A stretch of 7,008 nucleotides of DNA from Nitrososphaerota archaeon (GTDB taxonomy: Archaea; Thermoproteota; Nitrososphaeria; Nitrososphaerales; UBA57), in the NCBI GenBank assembly GCA_002713205.1, contig PAVW01000002.1, positions 1 through 7,008 on the forward strand. The letters are read 5' to 3'. Made by a program: the position numbers and the translations under genes. A model generated the notes under the pieces. It ran no database searches. It worked only from the letters and a program-made list of their open reading frames with translations, and was not told where the DNA came from. This document shows positions 1-7,008 of this stretch, one piece after another (the stretch's first letter is position 1; each line of letters begins with the position of its first letter).

Positions 1-14
1 TTAAAGAGTTGAGC

Positions 15-1664
15 ATGAAAGTACTTCTCATAGTTCCTGAAATTCGTCTAGACATGTCTCCACAACATGTTCCATTTTGGGCAGGAATCTTAGGCGCCAT
101 TGTTGAAAAAAAAGGCGGAGATGTAGGTATTTTAGATCTAAATGCATTACGAATGAATTATGATGGTAACACAGTACCATCAAATGTTATAGTTGAAGAA
201 ATTAGTTCAGAAAAATGGGATATTGTTGGAATTGGAGGTCTAACTACAACATACAAAAGAATAAAACAACTTGCTCCATTGATTCGTAAATGTTGTCCTG
301 ATTCATTGTTTATTGGTGGGGGCGGTTGGAGCACATACAATCCAGATGAGATACTTGAACTTATTCCAGAATTGGATTTAATTGTAATAGGTGAAGGAGA
401 AGAGACCTTTTCAGAATTATATGATAATGTCAGTGATAATCAGACTGATTTTCGTGGAATTGCAGGATTATGTCTACGAGAGACTAACGAATTGTATTTT
501 ACAGCACCAAGAGCTCTAATTCCTGATCTAAATACAATCCCCTATCCATCATACGATCTATTTGAAAATGAAATTTATTTCAAATATTCATCGATTCCAA
601 TGTCAGTTGAATCTTATAATGCACAAAGACGATTTTCGGTGGTTTGGGAAAGAGGATGTCCACGGGGATGTACATTTTGTTCACATAACGGAATGTCCAG
701 GATAGACTTACAGAATATTTATGGTTCAGGAGACAGATTAAAAGGAGAAAAACGTGTTAGGAAAATAGATGAAGAAGAGGGAACATTTCAATTACCAGCA
801 AGATGGCCATCACCTCAGTATGCAGTTGATAACATAAAATTATTAGTTGACAAATATGATTGCGACTTTATTTCTATAATGGATGAAAATATGACTAGTA
901 ATTTGAAATGGACTAAAGAGTTCTGTACATTATACATGGATGAAGGTTTGGATAAAATTTTAAAATGGGGAACCCTAGGAGATGCACCTAGCGTAGCAAC
1001 AAAACCTTCAATTATTAAAACGATGCAAGATGCAGGTTGTGCTTACATTTCATTTGGATTTGAATCTGCATCAGATAGAGTTCTAAATGAGGATATACAA
1101 AAAGGACAGTTAAGATCTCATTTACAAACTACTATTAATACATTAAAAGAAGTAGGTATGACGCCAATTACTACATTCATGATTGGCAATCCAAATGAAG
1201 ACATTAACGACTTGATGGAAACGGTTGATTTTTGGATTAAAAATGGAGCAGAAGTAGATCCTTTCATTTGCACACCATATGTTGGAAGTCCTTTATTTTA
1301 CAATAATAGAGATTATGTTTTAGAACAATATGATGAAAGAATTCTATTAGTAAATCAAGGAAAGTTTTCAGTAGAAAATAGGATTCTAAAAAAAATGTAT
1401 TTAGAAGCATTGGATAAATTTATGGAAGATTGTGGCGATGCAACACAGTATACTGCAACTGTTAGTAAAAATTTTACAATTCCAGAATTAATTGCATTAA
1501 AACAATTCATGTATAATCATGATGTTCGAAGAATGCTTCAAATGGCAAACCAGAAGTATGAAGAAACAAAACTTCCACAATGGAAAGTAAGTGAAAAATG
1601 GAAAAAATATGATCCAAATCATAAAGCAAAAAAAGAATTAACTAAAATAATAGAATCTTTATGA
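15..1664 (+). CDS. B12-binding-domain radical SAM enzyme (class B radical SAM; possible cobalamin-dependent methyltransferase or rearrangement enzyme)
   Basis: Long ORF. The track starts at TTG 9, but the first ATG at 15 gives MKVLLIVPE, a typical N-terminus for this family. The frame is open to the window edge, so the start is not fully certain. The N-terminal ~140 aa follow the B12-binding domain pattern (KVLLIVPE...WDIVGIGGLTT...LFIGGGG...DLIVIGEGEETF). The radical SAM cluster motif C-PRG-C-TF-C (CX3CX2C) is encoded at 657-680, and downstream barrel-like motifs are present (ISFGFESASDRVL, FMIGNPNE). The stop overlaps the next start as ATGA at 1661-1664. Confidence 0.85.
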   Translation: MKVLLIVPEIRLDMSPQHVPFWAGILGAIVEKKGGDVGILDLNALRMNYDGNTVPSNVIVEEISSEKWDIVGIGGLTTTYKRIKQLAPLIRKCCPDSLFIGGGGWSTYNPDEILELIPELDLIVIGEGEETFSELYDNVSDNQTDFRGIAGLCLRETNELYFTAPRALIPDLNTIPYPSYDLFENEIYFKYSSIPMSVESYNAQRRFSVVWERGCPRGCTFCSHNGMSRIDLQNIYGSGDRLKGEKRVRKIDEEEGTFQLPARWPSPQYAVDNIKLLVDKYDCDFISIMDENMTSNLKWTKEFCTLYMDEGLDKILKWGTLGDAPSVATKPSIIKTMQDAGCAYISFGFESASDRVLNEDIQKGQLRSHLQTTINTLKEVGMTPITTFMIGNPNEDINDLMETVDFWIKNGAEVDPFICTPYVGSPLFYNNRDYVLEQYDERILLVNQGKFSVENRILKKMYLEALDKFMEDCGDATQYTATVSKNFTIPELIALKQFMYNHDVRRMLQMANQKYEETKLPQWKVSEKWKKYDPNHKAKKELTKIIESL

Positions 1665-2659
1665 GTACTCAAAGTAAAGAGCAACAACAAATAGGTTTTC
1701 TCTCATTATGCTATCATTACATTCGTCCAGATAATGATGATCCATTTTCAAGACTTATGGGTACAAAAATAACAGAATTTAAAAATCAAATTAAAATGTT
1801 AAAAGAGAAATTTGAAATGATTTCTTTAGATGATGTGTTAGAATTTATTAATGCTAAAATTTTTGAAAATAATAAATATAAAATGTTATTGACATTTGAT
1901 GATGGATTATCAGAGCATTACAATGCAGCGAAGATTTTAAAACAATTTGATATTAAAGCGACATTTTTTATTCCAACATGTATTCTGAAAGAAAGATTAC
2001 CAGCAAATCCTATGATAATTCATTACGTAATAGCAAAATATGGAATAGAAAAATTTTTAGAAGAATTTAGATATGCTTTAAAAAAACTTGGGCTGGAAAT
2101 AAAAAAATATGATATAACATATGTACGTGAAGATAATGACGTATGGAAAAAAATTGCTGAAATAAAATATAATTTCAAATACAAATTAGGATATAAAATA
2201 TCACGAGAAATACTTCTACATATTTATCAAAATTCTCTTCTAATAGAATACCCAAATATTTTAGAGATAATACATCTCAATAAAGAACAAATACATGAAA
2301 TGTTAGAGATGGGTCACAGAATTGGAGTTCATACACATACACATATTTCTGTAGCCGCAACAAGTTTATCAGATTCTGATTTTTTTAATGAAATTGTCTT
2401 TCCAAAAAAATATCTGGAAGATGAATTCAACGTTCCAATTAAATCATTTAGCTATCCATTTGGTGAAAGAAAGGATTATCTTTCATCTATGCGATTCTTA
2501 AATAAAACAAAAGAATATGATCTTGCTTTTACTGTAGAAGAAATAGTAAATTTTGGAAATACTCCATTGGAAATAGGAAGGTATCAGCCTATGAGTCATG
2601 ACAATGTAAGAACTTTAGAGAACAATTTATCTAACATAATTAAAAAAAATATTTTGTAA
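1661..2659 (+). CDS. Polysaccharide deacetylase family protein (NodB homology / CE4 fold; de-N-acetylase or deformylase)
   Basis: 332-aa ORF. NodB motif 1, LLTFDDGLSEHY, has TFDDG at 1892-1906 and is followed by ATFFIPT. The His-rich metal motif GVHTHTH (HxxxH) is at 2330-2344, and an FSYPFGE motif follows. About 90 aa of helical-looking insertion lie between motifs 1 and 2. The start overlaps the upstream stop (ATGA), and the stop overlaps the next start (TAATG at 2657-2661). Confidence 0.8.
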   Translation: MSTQSKEQQQIGFLSLCYHYIRPDNDDPFSRLMGTKITEFKNQIKMLKEKFEMISLDDVLEFINAKIFENNKYKMLLTFDDGLSEHYNAAKILKQFDIKATFFIPTCILKERLPANPMIIHYVIAKYGIEKFLEEFRYALKKLGLEIKKYDITYVREDNDVWKKIAEIKYNFKYKLGYKISREILLHIYQNSLLIEYPNILEIIHLNKEQIHEMLEMGHRIGVHTHTHISVAATSLSDSDFFNEIVFPKKYLEDEFNVPIKSFSYPFGERKDYLSSMRFLNKTKEYDLAFTVEEIVNFGNTPLEIGRYQPMSHDNVRTLENNLSNIIKKNIL

Positions 2660-3468
2660 TGAAGTTAGTTATTTTCACTAGTAATGGGATACGTCACAAA
2701 TACGTTGCAAACACACTTGCAAAATTTGTTGACGATATTTTGATTGTATCTGAATGTAGACAAAATGATGCTTCAGACAAAGAAACAGAAGGAAATCTTT
2801 CTCCAATAGATGAGCATTTTAGAAAACGATATTTGACTGAAAAAGTCATGTTTGCAGGAAATGATGTTTTCAAGGGAAATGTCCTACCTCTAGTTTACAA
2901 AGAAGCAAATTTGGAATATACATATCAAGTTGTAAAAGAGTTTGATCCGGATTTGATGATTGTGTTTGGTTCATCGATCATTAAAGAACCTCTTCTTTCA
3001 TTGAAACCTAATCGATTCATCAATCTTCATTTAGGATTATCTCCCTATTATCGAGGAAGCGGTACAAATTTTTGGCCTTTTGTTAATAAAGAATTGGAAT
3101 ATGTAGGTTCAACGATTTTACATTTAGATTCTGGTATTGACACGGGAGATATTCTTACTCACGTAAAACCTAATTTTGAAATTAATGATGATGTTCACAC
3201 AGTGGGATGCAAAGTAATTCAAGAAAGTGTGAATGTATTAAAAAAAATAATCGAGATGGTAAAGAAAAATACTGAATTAAATAGAATTAAGCAATGGGAA
3301 TTATCAGATTCAAAATATTATAAAAATAGTGATTTTAATGAAGAGATATTGAATTTATATAAAAAAAATTTGTCAGAAGGCTTGATAAAAAATTTTCTAG
3401 AAAAATCTGAAAATAAAATTAGAATCATCAACATAGATAATGATAAAAATGAGACAGACAGAAATTAA
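2659..3468 (+). CDS. Formyltransferase family protein (Formyl_trans_N fold; probable N10-formyl-tetrahydrofolate-dependent sugar N-formyltransferase)
   Basis: 269-aa ORF. The motif INLHLGLSPYYRGSG matches the canonical HxSLLPxYRG folate/catalytic loop, with the N-x-H codons at 3022-3030. The motif LDSGIDTGDIL supplies the catalytic Asp (codon at 3139-3141). The Asn-to-Asp spacing of 39 residues is close to that in Fmt/PurN-type enzymes. There is no obvious Fmt-type C-terminal tRNA-binding domain. Confidence 0.8.
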   Translation: MKLVIFTSNGIRHKYVANTLAKFVDDILIVSECRQNDASDKETEGNLSPIDEHFRKRYLTEKVMFAGNDVFKGNVLPLVYKEANLEYTYQVVKEFDPDLMIVFGSSIIKEPLLSLKPNRFINLHLGLSPYYRGSGTNFWPFVNKELEYVGSTILHLDSGIDTGDILTHVKPNFEINDDVHTVGCKVIQESVNVLKKIIEMVKKNTELNRIKQWELSDSKYYKNSDFNEEILNLYKKNLSEGLIKNFLEKSENKIRIINIDNDKNETDRN

Positions 3469-4225
3469 AGAAGCTGTAATAATTACTGCAAGAATTAGTT
3501 CAAAACGTCTTCCAAACAAGACTATAATGGAAGTAAAAGGTCTGAAATCAATTGAGATTACAATTGAAAGAGCTAAAAAAATTGGTCATCAAGTAATTTT
3601 AGCAACAAGTAATGATAAATTAGATGATGTCTTAGTTGATATCACAAAGAAATGTGGAATAGAAATTTTTAGAGGTTCACTTTCAAATAAAATTAAAAGA
3701 TGTCATGATTGTTTCAAAAAATTCAAGATTGATAATGCATTATTGATAGAAGGTGCTGACATTTGTTATGATTTTAATATTGGAATTAGAGCGTTAACTG
3801 AATTAAGAGAAACAGATTCAGAGATTATTTGGTGTCCAAAGGAGATAATTACAGGTCTTTTTACTTTGGCTATGAGTAAATCCGCAATAGAAGAATTGTA
3901 TGAGCTTGTTCCTTCAGAAAATTTTGATACTGATGTATTTACTCACTTATTTGATAAGATGAAGGCAAAAGTCTCATTTGTTAAATTAAATAAAAATGAA
4001 AAAAATAAAGAGATTAGATTAACTATAGATTATCAAGAAGATTTAGATTTTTTTAGGAAAGTTTATCAGAATTTTTCAATTACGGAAGATAGTTCAGTCA
4101 TAATCAAATATTTGTTAGAAAATCCATCAATATGTAAAATGAATTATTTTAGAGAAAAAGATTATCTTGAAAATAAAGAGAACATGATGAAAGATTTCAA
4201 CAATAATAAAAAAAATAGTGAGTAA
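3440..4225 (+). CDS. Cytidylyltransferase family protein (SpsF/NeuA-like; probable CMP-nonulosonate synthetase)
   Basis: 261-aa ORF. The N-terminal motif AVIITARISSKRLPNK matches the ARxxSxRLPxK signature of the CTP_transf_3 / SpsF (COG1861) group. The C-terminal motif RLTIDYQEDLDFFRKVY matches the conserved TxDxxEDxxxxR motif of the same group. The start is ambiguous: ATG at 3440 or ATG at 3449. Either one overlaps the 3' end of the formyltransferase gene, by 29 or 20 nt. Confidence 0.75.
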   Translation: MIKMRQTEIKEAVIITARISSKRLPNKTIMEVKGLKSIEITIERAKKIGHQVILATSNDKLDDVLVDITKKCGIEIFRGSLSNKIKRCHDCFKKFKIDNALLIEGADICYDFNIGIRALTELRETDSEIIWCPKEIITGLFTLAMSKSAIEELYELVPSENFDTDVFTHLFDKMKAKVSFVKLNKNEKNKEIRLTIDYQEDLDFFRKVYQNFSITEDSSVIIKYLLENPSICKMNYFREKDYLENKENMMKDFNNNKKNSE

Positions 4226-4267
4226 TTCGTATTAATAATATGTTTAAGTGGAAGTAATTATATTCAA
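4226..4267 (+). promoter_or_regulatory. Possible internal promoter in the only intergenic gap of the operon (TATA-like boxes)
   Basis: A 42-nt AT-rich gap lies between the cytidylyltransferase stop (4223-4225) and the first neuB ATG (4268). TAATAATA at 4233-4240 lies about 30 nt upstream of ATG 4268. TTATAT at 4258-4263 lies about 25 nt upstream of ATG 4286. That is the spacing expected for an archaeal TATA box driving a leaderless mRNA. TATA-like strings are frequent in DNA this AT-rich, so this is weak evidence. Confidence 0.25.
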
Positions 4268-5326
4268 ATGCTTAATTGTGTTTTTATGGATGAACCAGAA
4301 ATAGTTCTTGATTCTAAGAGAATTGGAAGAAAACATAGACCACTTGTGATAGCTGAAATTGGAATTAATCATGAGGGAAAAATTGAGAAAGCAAAAAAAA
4401 TGATACAAGATGTCTATGATGCAGGTGCAGAATGTGTAAAATTTCAATCACATATTATAGATGATGAAATGATTCCAACTGATGTGATTCCTGGAAATTC
4501 AGATGAGACAATCTGGGAGATTGTTAAGAGATGTTCGTTTTCAGAAAAGGATGAGATGTCATTAAAAAAATTTGTTGATAGTTTAGGAATGATTTATCTT
4601 TCAACACCATTTTCTCGTGAATCAGCTGACAGATTAGAAAGAATGAATGTTATCGGATATAAAATTGGTTCAGGAGAATGTAATAATTATCCATTAATTG
4701 AACATATTGCTGAATTTGGAAAACCCGTAATTATTAGTACTGGAATGAACGATATAGAAAGCATATCAAAAAGTGTTAAGATTTGTAGAGAATCAAATAT
4801 TCCATTTGCGTTGATGCATGTAACATCAATGTATCCAACTCCATACGAACATGTACGTCTTGGTGCCATGACACACATTGCAGAAGAATTTCCTGATGCA
4901 GTAATAGGTTTGAGCGACCATTCAATTGGTAATTACACATGTTTTGCAGGAGTTGCTTTAGGTGCATCAATTCTAGAAAAACATTTTACATCAGACAAGT
5001 CATGGAGTGGACCAGATGTTCCAATCTCAATTGATCCTAGTGAATTAAAAAATTTAATCAACGGAGTAGATTCCATTTATAAATCACTGGGAGGAAAAAA
5101 AGAAATTCTCTCAGAAGAGCAACCAACAATTAATTTTGCATATTCATGTGTTGTAGCAATCAGAGACATTGAGATTGGTGAAAATCTATCAAAAGAAAAT
5201 GTATGGGTCAAACGTCCAGGTACCGGAGAGATACTTGCAAAAGATTTTCAGAAAGTATTAGAATATAAAGCAAAAATGAAAATTTCTAAAAATACTCAGA
5301 TAAAGTGGAATATGATTGAAAAATAA
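4268..5326 (+). CDS. neuB: Nonulosonic acid synthase, NeuB family (N-acetylneuraminate / legionaminate synthase) with C-terminal SAF domain
   Basis: 352-aa ORF with the full set of NeuB family motifs: PLVIAEIGINHEG, AGAECVKFQSH, LSTPFS, YKIGSGE, VIISTGM, ALMHVTSMYP, GLSDHSIG, LEKHFT. A SAF-like C-terminus follows (VVAIRDIEIGENLSKENVWVKRPGTG). An alternative start at ATG 4286 (MDEPEIVL...) is equally plausible. The neuB symbol denotes the family only; the Neu versus Leg type is unresolved. Confidence 0.92.
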   Translation: MLNCVFMDEPEIVLDSKRIGRKHRPLVIAEIGINHEGKIEKAKKMIQDVYDAGAECVKFQSHIIDDEMIPTDVIPGNSDETIWEIVKRCSFSEKDEMSLKKFVDSLGMIYLSTPFSRESADRLERMNVIGYKIGSGECNNYPLIEHIAEFGKPVIISTGMNDIESISKSVKICRESNIPFALMHVTSMYPTPYEHVRLGAMTHIAEEFPDAVIGLSDHSIGNYTCFAGVALGASILEKHFTSDKSWSGPDVPISIDPSELKNLINGVDSIYKSLGGKKEILSEEQPTINFAYSCVVAIRDIEIGENLSKENVWVKRPGTGEILAKDFQKVLEYKAKMKISKNTQIKWNMIEK

Positions 5327-6446
5327 AAAATTAGTTTTCATTACAGGGACAAGAGCGGATTTTGGTAAATTAAAACCATTAATTGATGTTGTGGAAAATT
5401 CAGATTTGTTTGATTGTTACATTTTTGCAACAGGTATGCATACATTAAAGAGATATGGTCATACATATTCTGAAATTAAAAAACAAAAATACAAAAATTT
5501 GATTGTATATAAAAATCAGAAAAATTCTGATCATGATTTGATTTTGGCTGATACAATTAAGGGTTTTTCAAAATTTGTTAAAGAAATCAAACCAGATATG
5601 ATAATTGTTCATGGAGATAGATTAGAACCACTTGCAGGTGCGATTGTAGGATTATTCAGTGGAGTACTAGTAGGGCACATAGAAGGGGGAGAAATATCAG
5701 GCACAGTGGATGAGATAATTAGACATGGTATAACCAAATTATCACACATTCATTTTGTATCAAATTTAGAAGCAAAAAAAAGAATTATGCAGATGGGTGA
5801 AAATACAAAATCATCTTTCATCATAGGTTCTCCAGAAATTGAAATAATGAAAGAAAGTATACTACCAAAAATACAAGATACAAAAATGAGATATAATATT
5901 CCATACGAGTCTTACGCAATTTTTATTTTTCATCCAGTTGTTACAGAATTTCATAGTACTAGAAAACAGATAAAACAAATTATTTTGGGATTAAAAGAAT
6001 CTAAGAGGAAATTTATTATAATTTATCCAAATAATGATAAAGGTTCAGATATTATAATTGAAGAGATTAAGAAATTAAGAGGAAATAAAAATTTTAGAAT
6101 TTTTCCATCATTAAGATTCAAATATTTTTTGTCATTATTGAAAAATGCTGATTTTGTGATAGGAAATTCTAGTACAGTAGTTAGAGAAGCTGAGGTTTAT
6201 GGTACTCCTGCTATCAATATAGGAACAAGACAAAATAATAGAAATAAAAATAAAGAAATAATTAATATTTTTCCAAATAGAAATGAAATACTTAAAGTAA
6301 TACAAAAAATTAATGGAAAAAGATTCAAACCAAAATCATATTTTTATCCTGTTAAGAGTTGTTCTGCTGAATTTTATAAAATTTTATTAAAAGATGAGAT
6401 ATGGAAAATTAATTTACAAAAACAGTTTAAGGATATTAAAATTTAA
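5316..6446 (+). CDS. neuC: UDP-N-acetylglucosamine 2-epimerase, hydrolysing type (NeuC/LegG family)
   Basis: 376-aa ORF. The N-terminus KKLVFITGTRADFGKLKPL, the HGDRLEPLAGA motif, and HIEGGEISGTVDEIIRHGITKLSHIHF match the NeuC-type GGE..G..DE..RH..TK.SH.HF signature rather than the non-hydrolysing WecB-type signature. The start must be TTG at 5316, because an in-frame TGA sits at 5313-5315 and the next ATG is codon 41. The gene overlaps the neuB 3' end by 11 nt. Confidence 0.9.
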   Translation: MKNKKLVFITGTRADFGKLKPLIDVVENSDLFDCYIFATGMHTLKRYGHTYSEIKKQKYKNLIVYKNQKNSDHDLILADTIKGFSKFVKEIKPDMIIVHGDRLEPLAGAIVGLFSGVLVGHIEGGEISGTVDEIIRHGITKLSHIHFVSNLEAKKRIMQMGENTKSSFIIGSPEIEIMKESILPKIQDTKMRYNIPYESYAIFIFHPVVTEFHSTRKQIKQIILGLKESKRKFIIIYPNNDKGSDIIIEEIKKLRGNKNFRIFPSLRFKYFLSLLKNADFVIGNSSTVVREAEVYGTPAINIGTRQNNRNKNKEIINIFPNRNEILKVIQKINGKRFKPKSYFYPVKSCSAEFYKILLKDEIWKINLQKQFKDIKI

Positions 6447-6463
6447 TATTTTAAAATTTTTTT
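6436..6463. terminator. Possible shared terminator between convergent genes (weak AT-only hairpin plus T7 run)
   Basis: TTAAAAT (6436-6442) and ATTTTAA (6448-6454) form a 7-bp inverted repeat around a 5-nt loop (TTAAT). A T7 run follows at 6457-6463 on the + strand. The stem is all A-T and overlaps both stop codons, so its stability is low. The oligo-T run alone could act as an archaeal-type terminator. Confidence 0.2.
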
Positions 6464-7008
6464 ATTAGATAAAAAGTGGTTTTTGCTGTTGTGGCAATAA
6501 CTAAACTCCATGCTACTCCAGTTATTCCAAACCAACTTCCTAAAACAATCATTCCTATAGTTAGAAAAACTAACGAGATGCCAGTACCGATAATTACAAT
6601 TTTACTTTTCTCTTTCCCTAAAAACTGTGCTTCGAGAATTAATGCAATACTACCAGGTATTACTACTAAACTCATTATCTTAATTGCATCAATAGCTTCG
6701 ATGAATTTAGGAAAGAAGTTTTCAACTAACATTGGCGCAATAAATATACCTAAAATAGATATGAAAATTGAAAAAATTATAAGAAAAATCTTCACTTGTT
6801 TGTTGCTAGTTCCTGTTGATTCTTCAGGAAGTAAATATTTGTAAAGAATACTTGGAAATATCATCATTACATTAATTATTTGAAGAGCAAGACTGTAATT
6901 GCCTAAAATCGCAAAACCTAGAAGTGGTGCTACAATAATTTTATCAACTTGGCCTCCTCCAATTGCACCCGTTAAGATGAATGTAAAATAATTATTTGTG
7001 ATAAATCC
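6451..7008 (-). CDS. Polysaccharide/oligosaccharide flippase, Wzx-like (MOP superfamily), C-terminal part; 5' end lies beyond the window
   Basis: The stop TAA is the reverse complement of 6451-6453. The track lists only 6451-6867 from an internal Met. My hand translation of the reverse complement of 6868-7008 in the same frame has no stop (GFITNNYFTFILTGAIGGGQVDKIIVAPLLGFAILGNYSLALQIINV-MMIFPSILYKYLLPE...). The protein is a series of hydrophobic helices, and the G.Y..A..I......P pattern is typical of Polysacc_synt family flippases. Confidence 0.75.
   Translation of the reverse strand, partial: GFITNNYFTFILTGAIGGGQVDKIIVAPLLGFAILGNYSLALQIINVMMIFPSILYKYLLPEESTGTSNKQVKIFLIIFSIFISILGIFIAPMLVENFFPKFIEAIDAIKIMSLVVIPGSIALILEAQFLGKEKSKIVIIGTGISLVFLTIGMIVLGSWFGITGVAWSLVIATTAKTTFYLIKKF

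Follow-up and report, generated by a model that had tools for sequence, protein, structure and literature searches.

We analysed a 7,008-nt stretch of DNA from a Nitrososphaerota archaeon of the UBA57 lineage (the window; positions 1 to 7,008, forward strand, of contig PAVW01000002.1, assembly GCA_002713205.1), in which six co-directional genes include the core of a pathway for nonulosonic acids (NulOs), the group of sugars to which sialic acids belong. Our data suggest that the window probably joins two separate modules of a variable surface-glycan island: genes 2–6, which would make a cytidine monophosphate (CMP)-activated, 5-N-formylated NulO of neuraminic (Neu) or legionaminic (Leg) type, and gene 1, a radical S-adenosylmethionine (SAM) enzyme with a B12-binding domain, whose constant partners lie just outside the window. 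For this reading, the substrates, step order and product are deduced from sequence. N-formyl NulOs and a formyltransferase within a NulO pathway are already established; a deacetylase route to variants at N5, and the trio that gene 1 forms with a Maf-like gene and a small-protein gene, have not been described before.

Linkage of a deacetylase and a formyltransferase to NeuB and NeuC

Gene 2 (1661..2659, + strand; 332 aa) encodes a metal-dependent de-N-acetylase of the CE4/NodB family (PF01522, 61.2 bits; cutoff 23.1). The first CE4 motif, TFDDG (1892..1906, +), holds the catalytic base Asp and a metal-ligand Asp, and the second, HTHTH (2330..2344, +), holds the H-x3-H metal ligands H224 and H228; residues D80, D81, H224, H228 and H19 are invariant in an alignment of 45 deacetylases. 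The N-terminal region (residues 13–109) aligns to PgaB and includes the invariant His19 of a CYHY motif, a candidate for the catalytic acid whose position would fit the permuted PgaB-type arrangement. No transmembrane (TM) or signal-like segment was found in the protein, which is predicted to be a cytoplasmic CE4 de-N-acetylase. Its family is smaller than that of gene 1 (179 matches, against more than 1,000 close relatives of gene 1).

Gene 3 (2659..3468, +; 269 aa) encodes a sugar N-formyltransferase of the N10-formyl-tetrahydrofolate type that consists of the N-terminal catalytic domain only (PF00551, 44.8 bits; cutoff 26.1). At least 95% of 62 formyltransferases, which reach down to 47% identity, retain N122 and H124 of its N-x-H motif, NLH (3022..3030, +), and the catalytic D161 (3139..3141, +). 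Its best solved relatives are N-formyltransferases of nucleoside diphosphate (NDP)-sugars, namely QdtF and WlaRD (E 1e-10) and PseJ (6ci2/6ci4, E 1.6e-8); these are closer than Fmt (E 2e-7) and PurN (E 5e-5), by a modest margin.

A metagenome scan with the 45-sequence deacetylase alignment returned 80 loci at 43–99% identity, which we annotated with a reference library of 47 proteins. A formyltransferase of ~260 aa was the immediate downstream, co-directional gene of the deacetylase in 64 of 73 loci and adjacent in 3 more; after clustering at 70% identity, the two were adjacent in 32 of 38 lineages. A long NeuB gene and an Epimerase_2 gene lay within 5 kb of the deacetylase in most of the loci with at least 5 kb of flank on both sides (15/19), and NeuB was present in 20 of the 25 de-replicated lineages with at least 8 kb of context. 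By comparison, a rough estimate from the size of a genome puts the chance expectation for a random 11-kb window at 1–2%. Gene order and strand differ widely among these loci, which argues that the linkage of the deacetylase and formyltransferase to NeuB and NeuC has been kept by selection and is not a relic of the shared ancestry of one arrangement. We are confident that genes 2 and 3 form a portable N-editing cassette tied to NeuB and NeuC. A preliminary description of this DNA had treated genes 1–3 as one tailoring triad and had proposed their co-occurrence with neuB and neuC as a check. For genes 2 and 3 the association stands well above chance, over some 39 lineages with many different gene orders, while gene 1 mostly occurs without them nearby and keeps company of its own, a Maf-like gene found beside it in every locus that could be judged.

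Six loci lack an adjacent formyltransferase, and in these the deacetylase abuts other genes instead: a Sulfotransfer_1 gene (L077:3828-4691, L080:1495-2364), a gene for a 742-aa carbamoyltransferase of NodU/CmcH type (L042:10995-13226), methyltransferase genes (L079, L083) or directly the CTP-transferase–NeuB–NeuC genes (L065). By analogy with heparan sulfate N-deacetylase/N-sulfotransferase (NDST), the sulfotransferase and carbamoyltransferase partners hint at N-sulfo or N-carbamoyl variants of the NulO. A second type of formyltransferase (338 aa, Formyl_trans_N plus Formyl_trans_C) recurs in the arrangement 'FmtNC< CTP_transf_3> DegT>' (L006:13683-14699 with 11662-13573; also L015, L042, L055, L056, L068, L072 and L088). 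Given its position beside CTP-transferase and DegT aminotransferase genes, each formyltransferase seems to be paired with its own amine-generating enzyme, and lineages with the 338-aa type may produce Leg-type sugars that are N-formylated twice.

The pair also occurs in a bacterial locus of exopolysaccharide (EPS) type (L066:7721-14781, and L067), where a deacetylase 49% identical to gene 2 and its formyltransferase lie among genes for a Wzz/GNVR (Wzc-like) tyrosine kinase, a glycosyltransferase of family 2 (GT2), a DegT aminotransferase and a PglC-like Bac_transf protein, and neither NeuB nor NeuC is present. Apparently the deacetylase–formyltransferase pair has moved between Bacteria and Nitrososphaerota and works outside NulO synthesis as well, as far as these gene contents indicate.

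A proposed route to a 5-N-formyl nonulosonic acid

The three genes that follow the cassette make up the NulO core. Gene 4 (3440..4225, +; 261 aa) encodes a cytidylyltransferase of SpsF/PF02348 type (54.7 bits), presumed to be the CMP-NulO synthetase, with a full-length match to the cytidylyltransferase 6oew. In B. subtilis, spsF, which encodes a putative cytidylyltransferase, is genetically required for the transfer of Leg to the spore surface and has been placed at the final step of CMP-Leg synthesis (PMC7439481). Gene 5 (4268..5326, +; 352 aa) encodes a NulO synthase of NeuB/LegI type with a SAF domain (PF03102, 236 bits; PF08666, 35.5 bits). It scores 348.6 bits against TIGR03569, under the equivalog cutoff of 399.65, and 399 bits against N. 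meningitidis NeuB compared with 142 against PseI; scores of this kind do not separate NeuB from LegI. Gene 6 (5316..6446, +; 376 aa) encodes a hydrolysing 2-epimerase of NDP-N-acetylhexosamines of NeuC/LegG type, well over the cutoff of TIGR03568 (385 bits; cutoff 236); among solved proteins it comes closest to LegG (5zlr, 163.5 bits) and human GNE (161.7 bits). The far higher score of gene 5 for NeuB than for PseI and the equal likeness of gene 6 to LegG and GNE point to a core of Neu/Leg type and not of pseudaminic (Pse) type.

A NulO takes its N5 from the 2-acetamido nitrogen of a hexosamine precursor made from N-acetylglucosamine (GlcNAc). In the window lineage, neither a 4,6-dehydratase nor a DegT aminotransferase was found across 17.6 kb, which we read from contigs whose gene 1 is 99% identical (L003–L005), exact-sequence look-ups of genes 2 and 5 having given no record. 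There was no DegT aminotransferase within 5 kb in 12 of the 19 deacetylase loci. Since a Neu/Leg-type pathway without an aminotransferase offers the formyltransferase no free amine, the deacetylase becomes the candidate amine source. This assignment draws on the absence of DegT, the pairing of each formyltransferase with a partner of its own, the variety of partners where the formyltransferase is missing, and the lack of any signal or TM segment in gene 2.

We therefore propose that genes 2–6 would form a self-contained route to a CMP-activated NulO of Neu/Leg type with an edited N5. Gene 2 would strip the acetyl group from the GlcNAc-derived nitrogen, most likely at the hexosamine (nucleotide-sugar) stage, and gene 3 would re-acylate the freed amine with formyl from N10-formyl-tetrahydrofolate. 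The NeuC protein of gene 6 would then release a 2-epimerised N-formyl-hexosamine, the NeuB protein of gene 5 would condense it with phosphoenolpyruvate, and the SpsF-type cytidylyltransferase of gene 4 would activate the product to the CMP sugar. The non-standard N-substituent anticipated in the preliminary description is in keeping with this route; formyl would be the most economical product, and on balance we lean towards a product of genes 2–6 that carries an N5-formyl group. In the window lineage this would be CMP-5-N-formyl-neuraminic acid (Neu5Fo), provided that no 4,6-dehydratase or aminotransferase acts, including one encoded elsewhere. Related loci in which dehydratase and aminotransferase genes are present (e.g., L006, L068, L072) would make a 5-N-formyl sugar of legionaminic type.

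Action at the hexosamine stage is favoured by the bacterial EPS-type locus, which has the pair and no NulO genes, taken together with the kinship of gene 3 to NDP-sugar N-formyltransferases. The same N5-formyl NulO could be reached in another order, with genes 2 and 3 working late, on Neu5Ac, CMP-Neu5Ac or the assembled glycan. Most CE4 enzymes do act on assembled glycans, the gene order in the window (deacetylase, formyltransferase, CTP-transferase, NeuB, NeuC) sets no reaction order, and late action would spare NeuC and NeuB from accepting N-formyl substrates. We nevertheless give it a rather low probability: gene 2 is predicted to be cytoplasmic and has no signal peptide, the nearest solved relatives of gene 3 all use NDP-sugars, and the pair in the EPS-type locus points to a common hexosamine substrate.

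Some points weigh against early deacetylation as we propose it, or against the pathway as a whole. To our knowledge, no CE4 enzyme acts on a nucleotide sugar or on a free NulO, and the hexosamine-stage route would need both NeuC and NeuB to accept N-formyl substrates. In addition, a long NeuB is missing from the 5 kb around the deacetylase in 4 of the 19 loci, and the EPS-type locus shows that the pair is not specific to NulOs.

Gene 1 and its Maf-like and small-protein partners

Gene 1 (15..1664, +; 549 aa; alternative TTG start at 9) encodes a B12-binding domain (PF02310, residues 19–137, 51.6 bits; cutoff 32.1) followed by a radical SAM domain (PF04055, residues 215–408, 57.1 bits; cutoff 29.5). 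An operon start at position 9 had been given earlier, and the TTG there does open the reading frame; given that homologues of up to 100% identity are 549 aa long, translation most likely begins at the ATG at 15. The CX3CX2C motif that binds the [4Fe-4S] cluster and SAM (CPRGCTFC; 657..680, +) is intact, and its three cysteines are all invariant or at least 90% conserved among 27 radical SAM homologues. An AlphaFold2 (AF2) model of moderate quality (mean predicted local distance difference test score, pLDDT, 73) gave TsrM as the top Foldseek match (E 2.5e-15, TM-score 0.53), followed by MgmA, AprD4, TokK, CysS and OxsB (TM-score ~0.5), with 13–17% identity to any solved enzyme. From its domains and modelled fold, gene 1 is predicted to be a cobalamin-type radical SAM enzyme with class B architecture.

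It shares this two-domain architecture with GenK, GenD1, Fom3 and AprD4-type enzymes, of which Fom3 reportedly methylates a CMP-linked substrate, which would offer an analogy to a CMP-NulO, and AprD4, among the best structural matches, is a sugar 1,2-diol dehydratase. Gene 1 approaches no NCBIfam family threshold; its best match there, BchE, stood at 126 bits against a cutoff of 481. A search of representative sequences with gene 1 returned a compact orthologous group plus Nitrososphaerota outgroups, none with a transferable function. Since AprD4, which we take to work without cobalamin, is among the matches, the chemistry of gene 1 cannot be read from its fold. The high conservation of gene 1 led us to consider also a role in lipid biosynthesis, similar to the ring synthases of glycerol dialkyl glycerol tetraethers (GDGTs); the sole lipid match in NCBIfam is weak and partial (TIGR04072, E 9.5e-11, residues 82–146), and the linkage of gene 1 to a Maf-like gene weighs against this idea.

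We compared the neighbourhoods of gene 1 in 13 species-level Nitrosopumilales genomes (a single-protein scan gave 14 loci) and in several metagenomic architectures. They contain a conserved trio, made up of a soluble protein of ~60 aa, a Maf-like PF01973 protein of 320–370 aa and a B12 radical SAM enzyme of the gene 1 type (L003:4715-7622). In the window lineage gene 1 comes last, and the two upstream genes of the trio lie just outside the window. A Maf-like PF01973 gene was found within 800 bp of the gene 1-type gene in 28 of 28 loci with a testable flank, and the ~60-aa open reading frame (ORF), with its conserved C-terminal motif EEFEEFI-KSGAKGSFMVYRS-KKDEELGIDEL, accompanies both. The order of the trio and its position relative to core genes vary, and the three genes stay together: they lie beside IF-2B in some loci, between IF-2B and the iron–sulfur (FeS)-assembly/PqqD genes in L098 and L106, and amid NulO genes in L109, often at the edge of variable NulO islands. 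The other flank of gene 1 is variable: DegT, a short NeuB, an epimerase, a CTP-transferase, another radical SAM gene and core genes all occur there. Every locus with adequate flank has a NeuB-family gene no more than 10 kb from gene 1.

The Maf-like partner matches PF01973 with 49.7 bits. Foldseek matched its AF2 model (pLDDT 82) best to Magnetospirillum Maf (5mu5, E 2.7e-7, 276 columns of 329 aa) and second to the pterin kinase MptE of M. jannaschii (E 1e-4), and residues 5–316 align to positions 175–454 of the 640-position model of PseD, a Maf-type flagellin-modification protein. Like the Maf proteins of Campylobacter, Aeromonas, Clostridium and Magnetospirillum, it has PF01973 and sits in NulO gene islands. 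The full-length Maf architecture (~600 aa, with flanking domains) was not found in the 329-aa protein, whose TM-score normalised to Maf is 0.29. It further differs from bacterial Maf proteins and from their loci as described in its archaeal host and in its unvarying company of a B12 radical SAM enzyme and a ~60-aa protein. The modelled structure gives moderate support for a Maf-like putative NulO transferase that is not itself a Maf.

The trio accompanies NulO clusters of many compositions and would be a second module, in which gene 1 probably catalyses a radical reaction that depends on cobalamin; its structural relatives most often carry out methylations. The target of gene 1 would be something common to all islands, such as the NulO donor, the small protein or the acceptor on which the Maf-like enzyme works, and gene 1 probably acts on a component of this kind, as judged by association. 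More specifically, and only tentatively, we suggest that gene 1 and its two partners carry out a cobalamin-dependent radical modification (e.g., C-methylation) of the CMP-NulO, the transferred sugar or a protein acceptor, and that other B12 radical SAM subfamilies in these islands are further NulO tailoring enzymes.

Foremost among these other subfamilies is a 683-aa enzyme encoded upstream of the window (L003:2551-4602), which scores 188 bits against the KedN5 family of methylcobalamin-dependent C-methyltransferases. In the deacetylase-anchored scan its gene lies directly upstream of, and co-directional with, the deacetylase–formyltransferase pair in 7 loci (including L057, L058, L059, L082 and L095) and within a few genes of the pair in others; beyond that scan, it was found in the window lineage, with the pair, and in L009, where the context is too short. 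Wherever context allowed a judgement, the gene was confined to loci with the pair. Another subfamily appears in a single co-directional operon (L090:2139-15521) that begins with genes for an AsnB-like amidotransferase, a transglutaminase-like protein, a GFO/IDH/MocA oxidoreductase, NeuB and NeuC, and continues with a non-B12 radical SAM protein (451 aa), a TylF methyltransferase, the deacetylase, the formyltransferase, a CTP-transferase, a 462-aa B12 radical SAM enzyme and a flippase. If the sugar of genes 2–6 undergoes a cobalamin radical tailoring step, the KedN5-like 683-aa enzyme may be a better candidate for it than gene 1.

Genes 1–3 might instead be one module acting on the same NulO, with deacetylation, formylation and a cobalamin radical methylation or rearrangement. 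Overlapping stop and start codons chain the three genes in the window and in L029, L030 and L034, B12 radical SAM genes of several subfamilies often neighbour the deacetylase–formyltransferase pair, and gene 1 always lies within NulO-gene islands. This arrangement is restricted, however, to loci closely related to the window: only those three place gene 1 immediately before gene 2 (deacetylase identity 99, 89 and 75%), and in L031, at 87% deacetylase identity, the upstream neighbour is already a NeuB gene on the other strand. In other lineages with both, gene 1 is 2–5 genes away and divergent or convergent. Gene 1-type genes occur in only 8 of the 25 de-replicated deacetylase lineages with at least 8 kb of context, and most gene 1 loci (e.g., L001/L002, L109) have no orthologues of genes 2 and 3; the constant partners of gene 1 are the Maf-like gene and the small ORF. 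Gene 1 is also 66–72% identical across genera, compared with ~50% for gene 2, and this better conservation fits a constant substrate and not a variable tailoring role. We consider a single module unlikely. Read across these loci, the 4-nt overlap of genes 1 and 2 appears to be a lineage-specific juxtaposition, and gene 1 not a dedicated partner of genes 2 and 3.

Less probable still is a role for gene 1 and an MptE-like partner outside glycan synthesis, for example as a pterin-cofactor pair (an MptE-type pyrophosphokinase with a radical SAM methylase) or in housekeeping; their place beside the glycan island would then be due solely to conserved synteny with core genes (IF-2B, FeS-assembly/PqqD). 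Gene 1 is about as conserved as the flanking core genes (~1.7 bits per residue, compared with 1.8 for IF-2B), the trio often sits at the island border beside IF-2B, and the sequence profile of the partner finds only MptE in the PDB. On the other hand, the trio shifts relative to the core genes and yet stays together (L098/L106, L109), the best fold match of the partner is Maf, over 276 of 329 residues, the PseD model aligns to residues 5–316 of the partner, and a distant actinobacterial relative of gene 1 adjoins GT2 genes and a flippase.

Our preferred reading, with gene 1 and its partners as a NulO module separate from genes 2–6, has points against it too. The profile match of the partner to MptE (E 9.5e-5, 74 residues) is its only one in the PDB, the protein is about half the size of bacterial Maf, and the evidence that separates a Maf-like protein from an MptE-type kinase is moderate. 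Relatives as distant as 75% deacetylase identity (L034) retain the 4-nt overlap of genes 1 and 2, and in the window lineage gene 1 is probably co-transcribed with genes 2–6 and could have their sugar as its substrate. B12 radical SAM genes from other subfamilies also adjoin the pair (the 683-aa type in 7 loci) or share its operon (the 462-aa type in L090), so that a radical step on this class of sugar is conceivable.

Several further observations concern the trio. The ~60-aa protein could be a substrate, a carrier or an adaptor. On a 700-kb contig (L021:8807-11659 and 18777-19759), the Maf-like gene, gene 1 and Epimerase_2 are each split into two or three ORFs, either by assembly frameshifts or by pseudogenisation of the trio. 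A 2.7-kb contig (L009, JAJFIL010000137.1) with a gene 1 orthologue of 72% identity belongs to a metagenome-assembled genome (MAG) labelled Alphaproteobacteria, probably through thaumarchaeal contamination in binning. In some lineages (L006:3614-8607; L072, L079) phosphonate genes adjoin the trio, encoding PEP mutase, a thiamine pyrophosphate-dependent decarboxylase, an iron-containing alcohol dehydrogenase, a nucleotidyltransferase and sulfatase-family proteins; they recall the methylphosphonate cluster of Nitrosopumilus maritimus. A tie between gene 1 and the phosphonate (PEP mutase) genes of L006 and L072 was discarded, since most trio loci are without them.

Known systems and the wider locus

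In the Pse5Ac7Fo branch of pseudaminic acid biosynthesis, formylation is carried out by PseJ (PMC11040635). Gene 3 is like PseJ in being a folate-type N-formyltransferase within a NulO pathway whose substrate would be a nucleotide-linked amino sugar. PseJ reportedly formylates an amine made by the aminotransferase PseC, which becomes N7 in a Pse-type pathway, whereas gene 3 belongs to a Neu/Leg-type core with no aminotransferase near, and its amine is proposed to come from the deacetylase and to become N5. Among archaea, Halorubrum sp. PV6 carries 5-N-formyl-legionaminic acid on its S-layer glycoprotein and has a predicted formyltransferase gene beside legG (PMC6137143). Its cluster (HrrPV6_1046-1053) resembles the window as an archaeal NulO cluster with a formyltransferase next to a NeuC-like gene. 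Unlike the window, it has LegB, LegC and LegH, and no deacetylase is reported there (PMC6137143), which leaves the route that frees N5 in that cluster unexplained. PseJ, a characterised enzyme of the Pse pathway, and the predicted Halorubrum formyltransferase overturn one statement of the preliminary description, that the canonical NulO routes use none of the three enzyme classes of genes 1–3. NeuA and NeuB genes had been noted earlier in some marine ammonia-oxidising archaea (PMC8397731, citing Kandiba & Eichler 2013).

Our literature searches found no report in which a CE4 deacetylase and a formyltransferase are brought together for NulO synthesis, and no report that ties a radical SAM enzyme of any kind to NulO, Pse, Leg or Maf systems; the latter agrees with the earlier remark that no cobalamin-dependent radical step has been characterised in NulO biosynthesis. 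Nor do we know of any CE4 enzyme in NulO biosynthesis. Deacetylation followed by re-derivatisation is nonetheless a familiar logic, used by LpxC/LpxD and by heparan sulfate NDST. Genes 2 and 3 would follow it by hydrolysing the acetamido group that stems from GlcNAc and placing another group on the amine, and some gene 2 homologues have a sulfotransferase as partner, a combination also found in NDST. Gene 2 is of a different fold from LpxC and, unlike PgaB, which acts on an exported polymer, is a stand-alone and apparently cytoplasmic protein.

An ArnA/ArnD-like cycle, in which gene 3 would formylate an amino sugar to pull an unfavourable step and gene 2 would restore the amine as a deformylase, is highly improbable, although ArnD is a PF01522-family deformylase that works with the formyltransferase domain of ArnA and ArnA tops the NCBIfam matches of gene 3 (E 3.4e-12): an aminotransferase to supply the amine is missing within 5 kb in most deacetylase loci (12/19) and from the window lineage, the deacetylase occurs in six loci with no formyltransferase at all, gene 2 lacks the membrane association of a deformylase for lipid-linked sugars, and the variable re-derivatising partners fit an amine-liberating enzyme and contradict a deformylase.

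Unusual N-acyl NulOs are known for which the change at N5 is unexplained, and a portable cassette of a deacetylase and a group transferase would supply the missing step. If our interpretation is correct, marine ammonia-oxidising archaea would display a family of sialic-acid-like sugars with N5-formyl and possibly N5-sulfo or N5-carbamoyl groups. The locus lies in a hypervariable island, and the surface glycans of these archaea probably govern recognition by viruses and grazers. Nitrosopumilales rank among the ocean's most abundant cells and count as major producers of cobalamin; the trio, a near-universal feature of their NulO islands, could connect cobalamin metabolism with cell-surface glycosylation. 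A radical modification by the trio, if it takes place, would give NulO biology its first radical step that depends on B12, conserved across the Nitrosopumilales.

The layout of the window agrees with its first description in most respects. Six intact genes lie on the + strand, with junctions of −4, −1, −29, +42 and −11 nt, and all the Pfam families predicted for them (PF02310 and PF04055, PF01522, PF00551, PF02348, PF03102 and PF08666, and PF02350, in gene order) exceed their gathering thresholds. The five motifs placed at 657–680, 1892–1906, 2330–2344, 3022–3030 and 3139–3141 translate exactly as claimed, and their conservation among homologues shows that selection maintains them. G+C content across the window is 21–35%, a scan of the window against Rfam returned no RNA family, and proteins 100% identical to genes 1 and 2 are annotated to a marine Thaumarchaeota MAG. 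The source is a marine archaeon of Nitrosopumilaceae type.

On contigs L003–L005, the genes to the left of gene 1 encode IF-2B, a phosphoglucose/phosphomannose isomerase, a GT2 glycosyltransferase, the 683-aa B12 radical SAM enzyme, the 59-aa ORF of the trio and its 329-aa PF01973 protein. Beyond gene 6, the − strand encodes a membrane protein, a PF05159 (Capsule_synth) protein, a hexapeptide acetyltransferase and a second Epimerase_2. The window holds the C-terminal part of the membrane protein (6451..7008, −), whose translation has at least 7 TM-like segments; at full length it is 377 aa in L003, and it is probably a Wzx-like flippase. A 365-aa gene with a faint PF01943 match occupies the equivalent position in a related locus, the equivalence being one of position alone. 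The pair of membrane-protein and Capsule_synth genes recurs in L029, L036, L038, L040 and L077. PF05159 is, we believe, the family of KpsS1. This enzyme is a Pse-specific glycosyltransferase (PMC11040635).

Variants of the NulO core genes also occur in related islands. One locus encodes a 560-aa fusion of NeuB and CTP_transf_3 (L109:6106-7788) and has two more short NeuB-family genes (234–244 aa, no SAF domain). Short NeuB genes of this kind recur with a pair of Epimerase_2 and hexapeptide-transferase genes in many loci (e.g., L014, L099), which suggests a second ulosonic-acid pathway.

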